From: Rickettsiales bacterium
GTDB lineage: Bacteria; Pseudomonadota; Alphaproteobacteria; Rs-D84; CACZYB01
Reading direction: 5' to 3'
Assembly: GCA_031263095.1 (NCBI GenBank)
Contig: JAISGI010000019.1
Coordinates: 1 to 55,832, forward strand
Length of the DNA: 55,832 nucleotides
Made by a program: the position numbers and the translations under genes
In this document: positions 5,523 through 21,508 of the stretch, one piece after another
How positions within the stretch are numbered: position 1 is the stretch's first letter
Layout of the letters: every line of letters starts with the position of its first letter
Notes under the pieces: generated by a model
What the model saw: the letters and a program-made list of their open reading frames with translations, nothing else
Databases searched by the model: none
What the model was told of the DNA's origin: nothing

Positions 5523-5556
5523 AAGAAAAAGCGCCCTCCTGTTGCTGGGCGGGCGC
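5523..5556 (-). terminator. intrinsic terminator of ssrA
   Basis: GCGCCCGCCC...GGAGGGCGC hairpin followed by TTTTTCTT on the minus strand. Confidence 0.65.
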
Positions 5557-5826
5557 GGCCCCACTTTGGAAGTCCAAGATTCCCAAAGAATCTACGCGCT
5601 TTCCGGCTTAGGCAGCCAGGGCAAGCGCAGGACGATTGTCATTAGCATTCGTTCTTTTTAACCCGTTCGCTCGAAAGCAGGGCGGAATAATACCCTGATG
5701 CACGCCTATCCTTTATTGCACCCGTCGAAGCTGTTCATCCCCGTAAATGGTGGAGATGTCGGGAATCGCACCCGAGTCCGAAATGCCTATTCCAATATGC
5801 ATTTAGCATCATAGCCGTTGCCGGCA
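5530..5826 (-). ncRNA. ssrA: tmRNA, circularly permuted two-piece (alphaproteobacterial) form
   Basis: Acceptor piece ends CATCTCCACCA at 5748; 5-nt spacer; coding piece begins GGGGATG at 5742 (G3-U70 Ala identity); tag ORF 5646-5608 encodes ANDNRPALALAA*; ends approximate. Confidence 0.92.
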
Positions 5827-5832
5827 GGAACT

Positions 5833-5861
5833 ATTATAGTACAAAGTTCGACGGCTGTCAA
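5833..5861 (-). promoter_or_regulatory. consensus sigma70 promoter of ssrA
   Basis: Perfect TTGACA-N17-TATAAT. Confidence 0.85.
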
Positions 5862-5920
5862 CCGGAAATTTCCCCTTGACGCCACCGCCGCAATCCTATA
5901 ATCTGCCCTCAGAGGGAAAA

Positions 5921-18894: not shown

Positions 18895-19014
18895 CGGTTC
18901 CTAGGAATAAAAATGTTGCGGGAAATTCCGCCCGGAATAAGGAAATTTTTTGCCCACAAGTAGTTGAATTTACTTGCTTACCCCCCCCCTATATTGCTTT
19001 TGGCAGTATTTTTC

Positions 19015-19082
19015 CTATTGAATTGTTTTCAGATTGTGATATATTTTCAATTAAACGTCCGTTTAATTTTATGCTATCATTA
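19015..19082 (+). repeat. direct repeat copy 1 (promoter-like sequence plus recombination site B at 19045-19065)
   Basis: Near-identical to 20434-20499; contains TTGAAT-N16-TATATT with extended TG and the AAACGTCCGTTT core. Confidence 0.85.
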
Positions 19083-19120: not shown

Positions 19121-19726
19121 ATGATAGTGGCCTATGAGCGCATATCCAAGAATACCGAGCACCTCGAAAACCAGAGGCACCTCATAATGCGCTATACCGC
19201 CGAGAACAGCATAATTATAGACAAGTGGGTATCCGAGGTCAAATGCGGCGCCGCCCCGCTCGAGGGCAGACGCCTGAACCAGGTCCTGCGGCGCATAAAG
19301 CGGGACGACATAAAGCTTATCGTCGTGGCCGAACTCTCCCGCCTCGGCCGCTCGCTATACCAGGTCATGGGCATAATCGACAAGGTGCTCTCCTCCGGCT
19401 GTGCCCTGTGGATAGCCAAGGAAGACCACAAGCTCGACACCGGCACAATCTCCCAGATGCAGTGCTTTGCATGGAGCCTGTCCGCACAGATAGAGCGCGA
19501 GCTTATCTCCTCGCGCACCAAGGCCGCCCTCGCAAGATTGAAGGCCGAGGGCAAAAAGCTTGGCCGGCCCGTTGGCTCGCGCACGGCGTTCCGGCGCCTC
19601 GACGGCAAGCGCGAGCATATCCTCTCCCTGCTCTCCGGCGGCATGGCGAAATCCACACTCGCCAAACGGCTAAGGATAAGCGTCCCGACCCTCTATCGCT
19701 TTCTCTCTGAATATGAACATGCGTGA
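19121..19726 (+). CDS. serine recombinase, Mpi-like DNA invertase family
   Basis: AYERIS (catalytic Ser), ENQR, ELSRLGRSL, AQIERELISSRTKAALARLKAEGKKLGRP, C-terminal HTH. Confidence 0.9.
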   Translation: MIVAYERISKNTEHLENQRHLIMRYTAENSIIIDKWVSEVKCGAAPLEGRRLNQVLRRIKRDDIKLIVVAELSRLGRSLYQVMGIIDKVLSSGCALWIAKEDHKLDTGTISQMQCFAWSLSAQIERELISSRTKAALARLKAEGKKLGRPVGSRTAFRRLDGKREHILSLLSGGMAKSTLAKRLRISVPTLYRFLSEYEHA

Positions 19727-19760: not shown

Positions 19761-19789
19761 TTGTAATTCTTACTCTCAAAAGCTATAAT
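19761..19789 (+). promoter_or_regulatory. sigma70 promoter of the structured RNA / small secreted gene
   Basis: TTGTAA-N17-TATAAT; predicted +1 near G19796, the first base of the RNA closing stem. Confidence 0.7.
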
Positions 19790-19795
19790 ATATTT

Positions 19796-19977
19796 GTACC
19801 TAAATAGGTACGGGGCTAATTTGTAAGGCCCTCTTGTTTGCAGTGCGATGTGCACTGAGATTCACATCCCCAATACTTGGGGAGGCTTCGGTGTATGTTC
19901 AAGGGATTTATCCCTAAAGACTGGAGCGAGTCTTTCAAACAAGAGATTCTTACAAACTCCCCGACTTTTTTAGGTGC
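19796..19977 (+). ncRNA. unassigned ~180-nt structured RNA / 5' leader
   Basis: Long interrupted closing stem (GTACCTAAA/TTTAGGTGC, CGGGG/CCCCG, TTTGTAAG/CTTACAAA, CTCTTGTTTG/CAAACAAGAG) enclosing four perfect hairpins. Confidence 0.6.
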
Positions 19978-20004
19978 CAACTTAAACTTAAAAAAGGAGT
20001 AATC

Positions 20005-20376
20005 ATGAAAAAAGTATTATCAACCTGTTTATTGGCCTTGACGCTTTCGTCAGGCGCAGGCGCGGCCGTGAACTGCCGCAATACAACCAGTACAAAAAAA
20101 TTGGAGGGCCAGCTGAACCAGTTTACCAAAATTTGCGGGGTGATTGTCGATCATGATTATGCTGGCAAATATGTGCCGGATACCGTAATCGGATGCATAT
20201 ACGATGTCCTGAAACCATGCCATGTCAAGGGCAGGAACATAAATATGGTTTACGATTGGATGATTGGAACCGGAGGCACTTCTTGGAGCGGTCCGGTCGA
20301 CAGCACATGCGTGGACAAATTGTATACGACTTCCAAAGTTGCGGATGCCATAGTGAATTGCGGCAAGAAAAAATAA
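20005..20376 (+). CDS. small secreted Cys-rich protein
   Basis: AAGGAG RBS, signal peptide (MKKVLSTCLLALTLSSGAGA), six Cys in the mature part, lower GC than flanks. Confidence 0.8.
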   Translation: MKKVLSTCLLALTLSSGAGAAVNCRNTTSTKKLEGQLNQFTKICGVIVDHDYAGKYVPDTVIGCIYDVLKPCHVKGRNINMVYDWMIGTGGTSWSGPVDSTCVDKLYTTSKVADAIVNCGKKK

Positions 20377-20393: not shown

Positions 20394-20433
20394 AAAACGC
20401 TCTGTAGCCACATTTAGGTGGGCAGAGCGTTTT
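20394..20433 (+). terminator. intrinsic terminator
   Basis: AAAACGCTCTGT...GCAGAGCGTTTT hairpin directly abutting repeat copy 2. Confidence 0.7.
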
Positions 20434-20499
20434 CTATTGAATTGTTTTCATATTGTGATATATTTTCAAGAACGTCCATTTGATTTTATGCTGTCATTA
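20434..20499 (+). repeat. direct repeat copy 2 (promoter-like sequence plus degenerate site C at 20464-20481)
   Basis: Near-identical to 19015-19082; core GAACGTCCATTT. Confidence 0.85.
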
Positions 20500-20539: not shown

Positions 20540-21508
20540 ATGCAGTCTTACTCGATAACCGACGTCCTCGGCTTCTCCCTGATAGTGGCGCTCTGCCTCG
20601 CCATCGACCTGTTCGCGCACAAGAGGGACAAGGAGCCATCCGCGAAATCCGCCGCCGCCTGGACCCTGTTCTGGATAGCGGTGTCGCTCGCGTTCGCTAT
20701 GTATATAAGGCACACCCGCGGCGCGCCTGACGCCTACGCATTCCTTGCCGGATACGTGCTTGAAAAGACCCTCTCAATAGATAATATATTCGTCATCATG
20801 GCCATATTCGCAAGCTTCGATATACCGGCAAAGCTCCAACATAGAGTCTTGTACTACGGAATATTGGGCGCGCTGGTACTAAGGCTTGTGTTCGTCGCAG
20901 CAGGAGGAGCGTTCGTAGAGGCCATGGGCGGCACCGCGCTCGCCGTCTTCGGCCTGTTCATACTCTGGTCGGCGGTAAAGATGATGGAGGCCGCCGGAAT
21001 CTGGTTCCTCGCCTGGTCGGTGTTCAAGAAAGAGCAAAAACCGCAGGAGCAGGACTTCAAGAACCACTGGTCGCAAAGGTTTTTCAAACGCCTGTTCCCC
21101 ATAACGCCGAAACTTGAAGGACATAGGTTCTTCATAGGCAAGGCCGCGACACCACTGTTTTTGTGCCTGCTTACGATAGAGTTCGCGGACATTATGTTCG
21201 CCTTCGACAGCATTCCGGCCGTCATAGCCGTAACCGAAAAGCCGTTCCTGATATACACAAGCAACGTCTTCGCGATATTGGGCATGAGGTCGCTGTACTT
21301 CTGCCTTGCCGCGGCCAAACGCTCGCTTGTCCATTTGGAAAAGGCGGTCGTGGCGATACTGTTTTTCATAGGCTTGAAAATGCTTGCCGAAGTGTTCTTC
21401 AAGGCTCACGTTTCGCCGGGCGCCTCGCTTGCCGTGATATTTTCCATGGTCGCCGCGGGTGTCGCCGCCTCGCTCATCTGGCCGGGAAAGAAAAGCGAAA
21501 ATGCCTAG
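20540..21508 (+). CDS. TerC/Alx family metal (Mn) homeostasis membrane protein
   Basis: GYVLEKTLSIDNIFV, QHRVLYYGILGALVLR, DIMFAFDSIPAV, YTSNVFAILGMRSLYF. Confidence 0.92.
   Translation: MQSYSITDVLGFSLIVALCLAIDLFAHKRDKEPSAKSAAAWTLFWIAVSLAFAMYIRHTRGAPDAYAFLAGYVLEKTLSIDNIFVIMAIFASFDIPAKLQHRVLYYGILGALVLRLVFVAAGGAFVEAMGGTALAVFGLFILWSAVKMMEAAGIWFLAWSVFKKEQKPQEQDFKNHWSQRFFKRLFPITPKLEGHRFFIGKAATPLFLCLLTIEFADIMFAFDSIPAVIAVTEKPFLIYTSNVFAILGMRSLYFCLAAAKRSLVHLEKAVVAILFFIGLKMLAEVFFKAHVSPGASLAVIFSMVAAGVAASLIWPGKKSENA

Follow-up and report, generated by a model that had tools for sequence, protein, structure and literature searches.

A leader RNA beside a serine recombinase gene in a Rickettsiales genome belongs to a widespread, uncatalogued family with two conserved folds

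Described relatives and the element in the window

The small RNAs most similar to the element described here, sRNA-Xcc1 and the Brt RNAs, have so far been treated as genus-level RNAs, and we found no paper joining both. sRNA-Xcc1 is an 88-nucleotide (nt) RNA of Xanthomonas campestris detected at approximately 100 nt on Northern blots (PMC2996969). It lies upstream of symE in the most widespread integron cassette of Xanthomonas (bioRxiv 10.1101/2025.06.18.660453) and has seven copies in Xylella (PMC12189769), where C4 (RF01695)/IsrK is annotated beside it in a prophage region (PMC12189769, Table 4). The Bartonella RNAs Brt1-9 are abundant and 194–203 nt long, and each precedes a poorly transcribed XRE gene by 10–18 nt (Tu et al. 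2016, PMC5387305). The genes behind them lack a promoter of their own, and the Brt genes are reported as Bartonella-specific (PMC5387305; PMC8070961). Deletion of the brt1 3′ stem-loop increases trp1 transcription, and this stem-loop is described as a transcription attenuator (PMC5387305; PMC8070961). A reporter is also reported to rise as haem falls (PMC5387305; PMC8070961), and a haem response of Brt1 is suggested in the review only (PMC8070961). Here we examine positions 19796–19977 (plus strand) of a 55,832-nt stretch of DNA (the window; contig JAISGI010000019.1 of Rickettsiales assembly GCA_031263095.1), where an unassigned multi-hairpin RNA had been predicted from the sequence alone.

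The window element is one ordinary member of a widespread, uncatalogued family of leader RNAs of about 150–200 nt. Covariation supports a long-range fold plus a competing fold, making the element a conserved two-state structure. On the evidence of sequence comparison and folding, we favor, with moderate confidence, a two-state cis-acting leader or attenuator that has its own promoter and comes from a family that is sister to sRNA-Xcc1 and probably to the Brt RNAs.

The family and its two competing folds

Partial blastn matches in genomes of the same family led to 20 loci, all of which (20/20) contain the element. The aligned copies share the order of their parts: a promoter-like -10 hexamer, a 5′ hairpin, CGGG, variable strands, invariant blocks, a ribosome-binding site (RBS) and an open reading frame (ORF). 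The invariant nucleotides GGGGAG, G.ATGT.CA, AAAG and CTC.CCG are all present in the window copy. Furthermore, single-sequence folds of very divergent copies yield the same architecture, and RNAalifold, applied to a MAFFT-based alignment of the eight closest copies, yields 55 pairs, with compensatory changes in 28. We built one covariance model from these eight copies (R1) and another from 22 realigned copies (R2). In the 22-sequence alignment, which was fitted to the model and hence is biased towards it, 93.1% of the cells pair, compared to 39.6–53.4% when the partners are slid by 1–3 columns; changes on both sides occur in 43 of the 55 pairs, and none of 500 shuffles reaches the observed values. 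The single-sequence folds and the MAFFT-based RNAalifold prediction are free of this bias. The window copy scores 147.6 bits with R1 and 142.8 bits with R2 (model positions 1–157 of 157), the latter by construction, as this copy is in the seed set. Independent support comes from the 80 listed loci of a sequence-pattern scan, of which 79 match R2 at full length (40.7–108.8 bits) and the 80th in part.

The family is common among relatives of the source organism and extends to other phyla. R1 finds two copies in the organism's own genome (854,641 bases, 88.6% complete), both upstream of secreted ORFs (Table 1); a blastn search of this genome with the element returned no match besides the element itself. 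Within the order, R2 matches 120 of 151 genomes (E ≤ 0.001), and one 0.8-Mb genome carries 19 copies or more; the search scored 19 candidates per genome, and copy numbers are lower bounds. A class-wide sample with one genome per family gave matches in 21 of 151 genomes, a tally that includes the unpublished genome G191. The pattern scan of named genomes gave at least 121 places. The 6.3-Mb genome behind locus L148, from an Allorhizobium strain, holds 11 copies. Among the 80 loci listed, about 60 are labelled Alphaproteobacteria (Rhizobiales, Rhodobacterales, Sphingomonadales, Caulobacterales, Rickettsiales-labelled genomes and gut metagenome-assembled genomes), 11 Verrucomicrobia and 5 Acidobacteria. 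The listed carriers include the cultured isolates Granulicella rosea DSM 18704 (Acidobacteria), Celeribacter ethanolicus NH195 and Microvirga vignae BR3299.

The 182-nt window copy has a minimum free energy (MFE) of -81.8 kcal/mol, well below the mean of its dinucleotide shuffles (-47.0 kcal/mol, sd 4.1; z = -8.55), a stability reached by 0 of 200 shuffles. The opposite strand is stably folded as well (-73.4 kcal/mol, z -8.4), as expected of any helix-rich DNA. We assigned the element to the plus strand because G-U pairs are kept across homologues, a promoter-like site is present and the orientation towards the downstream ORF is fixed. The MFE fold is a long rod with four closing helices and three hairpins (P4, P5 and P6) at its tip (Table 1). 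From the position of the sigma-70-like site, transcription is expected to start near 19796, the first base of the structure. A simple pattern search finds a TATAAT-like hexamer at this offset in 12 of the 21 homologous copies.

Table 1. Coordinates of the leader RNA, its structural parts and associated features (window positions unless a contig is named).
Feature	Position	Strand	Basis or remark
Small serine recombinase gene	19121–19726	+	Resolvase and HTH_7 (Pfam); outside the conserved context of the RNA
Promoter-like site TTGTAA-17-TATAAT, sigma-70-like	19761–19789	+	10/12 positions matched
Outermost rod helix	19796–19804 with 19969–19977	+	MFE fold
P0, 5′-terminal hairpin GTACCT-AAAT-AGGTAC	19796–19811	+	Strands alternatively pair with the 3′ tail (19964–19977)
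Conserved leader core	19811–19964	+	Full-length match to covariance models R1 and R2
P1	19811–19815 with 19959–19963	+	MFE fold, covariation
P2	19820–19828 with 19948–19956	+	MFE fold, covariation
P3	19831–19840 with 19936–19945	+	MFE fold, covariation
5′ strands of P1–P3	19811–19840	+	Alternative fold: local hairpin GGGGCT...GGCCCT
P4, variable hairpin	19841–19857	+	Loop GATGTG (19847–19852) pairs with CACATC (19863–19868)
P5, hairpin TCCCCAA/TTGGGGA	19867–19883	+	Carries invariant GGGGAG (19879–19884), 21/21 copies
P6, helix 19885–19892 with 19920–19927 and inner hairpin 19902–19915	19885–19927	+	Covariation
P6 invariant loop nucleotides G.ATGT.CA and AAAG	19893–19901 and 19916–19919	+	Conservation
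3′ strands: GAGTCT (19928–19933), P3′ (19936–19945), P2′ (19948–19956), invariant CTCCCCG (19957–19963)	19928–19963	+	
P7, alternative local hairpin: GAGTCTTT with AGAGATTC (19942–19949)	within 19928–19963	+	
3′ tail ACTTTTTTAGGTGC	19964–19977	+	Complementary to P0; T6 run 19966–19971
RBS AAGGAG	19994–19999	+	
123-aa ORF	20005–20376	+	Signal-peptide-like N-terminus
Second copy in the own genome	G000:C28:455-641		Upstream of a secreted ORF

The structural details of the original prediction fared unevenly. The stretch does fold better than expected by chance, the expected +1 does coincide with the first base of the structure, and the proposed alternative pairing between GATGTG and CACATC was borne out, with 95.8% of the cells paired versus 21–56% in slid controls and double changes in 4 of 6 pairs in an eight-sequence subgroup. 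Three of the four hairpins it listed (19841–19857, 19867–19883 and 19902–19915) are present and covary. The fourth, AAAGACT/AGTCTTT, is not a conserved pairing: GAGTCT pairs with AGATTC, of which either copy (19858–19863 or 19944–19949) can be the partner. Nor is there a C-UUCG-G loop, as the stretch so interpreted is the 5′ strand of the conserved P6 helix. The two P6 helices (helices 7 and 8) are 95.5% and 98.5% paired and show double changes in 10 of their 14 pairs. The prediction also placed the end of the structure about 17 nt before the RBS, which measures 16 nt, and one of its readings, a structured RNA placed as a 5′ leader, was upheld.

The RNA has two folds that exclude each other. 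Fold A is the long rod, in which the 5′ strands of P1–P3 (19811–19840) pair with 3′ strands at 19936–19963 and close the three-hairpin junction. Fold B tucks the rod strands into two local hairpins, and GGGGAG can pair with its alternative partner CTCCCC (19957–19962) to close a 3′ domain like that of sRNA-Xcc1. The 5′ local hairpin, which runs from P1 to the start of P3 with the P2 strand in its loop, can form in 129 of 131 distinct members, compared to 58.2 expected from shuffles. The 3′ local hairpin (P7-type, located after P6 and enclosing the 3′ strand of P3) can form in 122 of 131 members versus 39.9 expected, and its arms vary by branch (AGUCAU/AUGAUU, GGUCGUC/GGCGGCU and GCCGU/ACGGU). 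RNAalifold on the first alignment (A1) chose the GGGGAG/CTCCCC pairing. The 3′ domain of the window copy (19876–19977) also forms a closing stem and two hairpins when folded alone (-34.4 kcal/mol); the whole RNA has a different ground state.

Output step, downstream genes and alternative explanations

The conserved core is flanked by a 5′ hairpin and a 3′ tail with mutual complementarity. Duplexes between the 28 nt preceding the core (P0) and the 45-nt tail of the same copy reach -17.0 kcal/mol, compared to -14.1 kcal/mol with the tails of other copies, and the own tail is the better partner in 93 of 129 copies (Wilcoxon p = 3e-10, a value overstated by the relatedness of the copies). Of 43 copies in the order, 31 are followed by a terminator-like feature, which is a U-run directly after P1 in 19 and a hairpin with a U-run in 12. 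For one large genus of this order, inspection by eye indicates that the tail is a hairpin-plus-U terminator with a 5′ arm complementary to P0; there, fold A extended by P0 would act as an antiterminator. Many copies of free-living taxa instead carry a second conserved hairpin, with GGGGAG as the RBS (by eye). This second hairpin lies 20–70 nt after the leader in many alphaproteobacterial and acidobacterial copies (L110, L117, L121, L127, L130, L139, L140 and others), exposes the loop GCGGGGGCG(T/C)ACCGC and is followed by GGGGAG and a start codon. Its loop is complementary to the GTACGC-type loop of the 5′ hairpin, so a kissing-loop contact is possible.

The complementarity between P0 and the sequence after CTCCCCG suggests that the state of the core decides the behavior of the 3′ tail. 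In many members the tail is terminator-like or adjoins the RBS, and the window tail holds a T6 run (19966–19971) directly 3′ of the G+C-rich closing stem, which makes it a candidate intrinsic stop. The leader would thereby gate the downstream secreted-protein gene (20005–20376), most likely by premature termination with conditional read-through, with a stable RNA of about 175 nt as the product of termination. As a guess, the trigger could be a factor that recognizes the invariant bulge of P6. The structure with both folds, its conservation, the pairing potential of P0 and tail, the promoter-like site and the gene context are shown; transcription, termination at T6, the identity of the "on" fold and the trigger are inferences.

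The window ORF begins 28 nt after the last base of the structure (19977); its product matches no Pfam family and has no paralogue in the own genome. Across the order, an ORF with an RBS follows 42 of 43 copies on the same strand at a distance of 20–90 nt, and 24 of the 42 match a crude signal-peptide pattern. By eye, the remaining ORFs include methyltransferase-like and helicase-like genes. The wider set encodes small membrane proteins, lipoproteins, prepilin-like proteins, XRE regulators and PAS proteins, as judged by eye from their N-termini. This gene context fits a regulator of accessory and surface genes. An antitoxin-like role, which the original prediction had considered, finds no support in this mixed cargo of mostly long secreted proteins. 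Like a metabolite riboswitch, the family has a structured core with invariant unpaired nucleotides; the common pathway or transport function of such riboswitches is absent.

In several genomes the leader is followed by members of a recurring family of cysteine-rich secreted proteins that share the motif L-x-x-Y-C-(V/I)-P (L037, L038, L051, L054, L055, L056, L060 and L111). The second leader copy in the own genome (L045 1-1350, G000:C28, minus strand) precedes a secreted ORF with the Pfam domain Mtd_2nd (PF21916, 32.8 bits), the fold of target proteins of diversity-generating retroelements; a 255-aa ATPase-like gene and a 189-aa gene lie upstream in this locus.

Several observations weigh against a switching attenuator, above all in the window copy. 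Fold A is computed at -81.8 kcal/mol and forced fold B at -63.9 kcal/mol, a gap of 18 kcal/mol, and fold B may, by this calculation, be only a folding intermediate in the window copy. Among the eight closest sequences, the 3′ local hairpin pairs throughout but shows hardly any variation, and 105 of 500 shuffles equal it (not significant). A terminator-like feature follows only 13 of the 86 copies in free-living taxa. In the window, the terminator scan did not flag the T6 site, AAGGAG (19994) is unpaired in every computed fold, and the T6 run may be there only to complement the A-rich loop of P0, which makes the output step weakest in this copy. Furthermore, the downstream genes share no function or pathway, which argues against a classical metabolite riboswitch, and the sequence likeness to the Brt RNAs comes from one 24-nt primer.

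The strongest competitor of the preferred attenuator, which we nonetheless consider unlikely, is that the locus is mainly the gene for a trans-acting small RNA (sRNA) that ends at T6 and acts through CUCCCC, an anti-Shine-Dalgarno-like sequence, or through the P6 bulge, with the ORF as a passenger. The element's own promoter and its G+C-rich stem followed by T6 would suit such a gene, and both described relatives offer precedents: Northern blots show sRNA-Xcc1 as a discrete species of about 100 nt (PMC2996969), and the Brt RNAs are abundant while the gene downstream is barely transcribed (PMC5387305). Invariant single-stranded nucleotides also point in this direction and are compatible with a cis role. 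The placement of an ORF and RBS behind nearly every copy in the order, always on the same strand, is however the layout of a leader. The variable strands match their own downstream region no better than those of other copies, in a comparison in which trans targets were not sought, and Hfq was not found in the own genome, which shows little at 88.6% completeness. A static 5′ structure that serves mRNA stability or processing without switching is less probable still. It would agree with the dominance of fold A in the window and with the lack of an evident ligand or common regulated function, but would hardly account for the conservation of a second, exclusive hairpin set (129/131 and 122/131 members, versus 58 and 40 expected), the invariant unpaired nucleotides and the placement of terminators against P0.

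Three further explanations are very improbable. The original prediction had suggested a recombinase-associated RNA inside an invertase cassette, and a guide, bridge or cofactor RNA for the adjacent serine recombinase would account for the adjacency of the two in the window. This is the only observation in its favor. No resolvase homologue was found near the other RNA copies (0/20; tblastn, fetched flanks), and no leader RNA at resolvase loci of the order (0/11; within about ±1.5 kb), although resolvase homologues occur in 115 of the 151 genomes of the order (up to six matches per genome, 35–45% identity; loci L227-L237) and the RNA in 120. We dismiss this partnership almost entirely, as we do a DNA-level repeat such as a miniature inverted-repeat transposable element (MITE) or palindrome, a match to which had been named as a refutation of the predicted RNA. 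Multiple copies in relatives (at least 19 in one genome) and a rod that folds on both strands are typical of what such a repeat would show. Yet the helices covary while the sequences differ, G-U pairs are kept on one strand, the position between promoter-like site and ORF is fixed, the own genome holds two copies, both in front of secreted ORFs, and the family spans three phyla at 41–109 bits without sequence identity. A C4-type antisense device scarcely fares better. C4 is an antisense RNA of phages P1 and P7; in P1, its 3′ domain pairs with a second target set (a2/b2) over the downstream RBS. C4 and the leader family are both structured RNAs embedded in leaders, with complementary "decoy" strands upstream in the transcript that match the 3′ domain. 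A second target set is, however, not supported in cis, and the window copy matches no Rfam C4 model. The variable 3′ strands pair with their own downstream 130 nt at -10.9 kcal/mol and with those of other copies at -10.6 kcal/mol (own better in 71 of 129, p = 0.15), and the window duplex reaches only -5.3 kcal/mol.

The surroundings of the locus have features of their own. A direct repeat of approximately 80 nt (19002–19082 and 20421–20499, 88–90% identical) carries in each copy a promoter-like TTGAAT-16-TATATT with a TG extension, in front of the resolvase gene in the first copy and of a TerC gene (20540–21508) in the second. With the TerC promoter region thus present on either side, the block of resolvase, leader and secreted ORF could be deleted by recombination of the two repeat copies. 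An empty site was not found in relatives; the TerC query had no match in G001-G005. A run of nine C (18981–18989; G9 on the minus strand) lies between the first repeat copy and a gene for a 620-aa secreted protein (minus strand, start 18830). Elsewhere in the window, we identified a two-piece (permuted) alpha-type tmRNA (5528–5865, minus strand; 153.6 bits with RF01849, 124.1 bits with RF04321), by which the genome is judged alphaproteobacterial. The one sequencing run listed as containing this DNA is a DNA run from a termite-gut metagenome and may be the source of the window.

Wider significance and comparison with sRNA-Xcc1 and Brt RNAs

No Rfam family claims the window copy, as the original prediction had anticipated. 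A search of the whole window at gathering thresholds gave no match at the locus, and E-value scans around the element returned chance-level matches only (ARRPOF, 16 bits against a gathering threshold of 127; MEG8; IS128; a CRISPR repeat; TLS-PK6). Rfam thresholds were reached by none of the 12 loci scanned among the 80 listed pattern-scan loci. The predicted novelty holds for the full-length RNA, which is uncatalogued, and needs qualifying as to kind, the family being a distinct branch of the sRNA-Xcc1/Brt kind of two-state RNA. What is new is an RNA of 150–200 nt that covaries strongly, has invariant unpaired nucleotides and two conserved competing folds, and occurs in three phyla; the window adds one ordinary member and removes the suggested link to the recombinase.

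A bolder extension, which we put forward as speculation and consider unlikely, is that the family constitutes a class of RNA switch not described before, which would sense a signal as a riboswitch or be triggered by a protein or RNA. The invariant P6 bulge would read a global cue, to which surface, secreted and mobile-element genes of Alphaproteobacteria, Verrucomicrobia and Acidobacteria would respond in concert. Control of the secreted proteome in termite-gut genomes of about 0.9 Mb, with their 19 or more copies, would depend chiefly on this switch, and sRNA-Xcc1 and Brt would be its first-seen fragments. Recognition as one family would make the attenuator result from Bartonella testable in cultured carriers and would point to how symbionts with small genomes control their secreted proteins.

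The Brt RNAs resemble the leader family in size, stable fold, multiple copies and a place directly upstream of a gene. Furthermore, XRE-type regulators follow several family members (L080, L101, L128 and L077), as they do Brt. Read as the RNA strand, the BrtR primer (PMC5387305, Table S6) has GGGAG-N8-ATGTCCA where the family has GGGGAG-N10-ATGTNCA, with a spacer 2 nt shorter. The two differ in gene context: Brt always precedes XRE regulators at 10–18 nt, whereas the window leader precedes a 123-aa secreted protein at 28 nt. The reverse complement of the BrtR primer had no match in the 401 genomes of one family sample; L223 lacks this primer sequence and L225 that of BrtF. R2 gave one match (32 bits), not a Brt, in five small genomes of the same sample.

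The relationship to sRNA-Xcc1 is visible in searches in both directions. RF02221, the Rfam model of sRNA-Xcc1 (gathering threshold, 53 bits), does not match the window copy at E values up to 10 (601 nt and 121 nt around the element), and its sole match in the own genome lies elsewhere (14.4 bits). At relaxed thresholds, three of five relatives align to RF02221 at full length via their 3′ half (36.3, 24.6 and 22.8 bits). RF02221 has matches in 26 of the 151 genomes sampled across the class, above the cut-off in five of them, and elements of G198 and G287 are matched by both RF02221 and R2. R2 matches one of 20 RF02221 loci (30 bits) and none of the five above the cut-off (L205-L209). One of the latter (L207, G165:C1:749745-751817) carries three above-cut-off sRNA-Xcc1 copies in tandem with a spacing of 994 nt; a similar tandem array is reported in Xylella.

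The two RNAs share a design despite this limited similarity in score. Like sRNA-Xcc1, the 3′ half of the family has a G+C-rich closing stem (GGGGAG/CUCCCC) and two hairpins, one long and irregular with an asymmetric bulge, the other short, and the window 3′ domain folded alone forms the three-way junction of about 87 nt that is a trait of sRNA-Xcc1. The conserved bulge reads GUAUGUUCA/AAAG in the leader family and AUAAUACAAGA/GAAUAG in one RF02221 copy. Both RNAs occur in multiple copies and are associated with accessory or mobile genes. Rfam RF02221 covers only the 87-nt 3′ domain and is filed as a trans-acting sRNA; approximately 100 nt upstream, however, true RF02221 copies (57.9–70.3 bits) carry a strand complementary to their own 3′ part, in what appears by eye to be the same two-state layout. 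Judged from these sequence and structural likenesses, the leader family and sRNA-Xcc1 are sister branches of one design.

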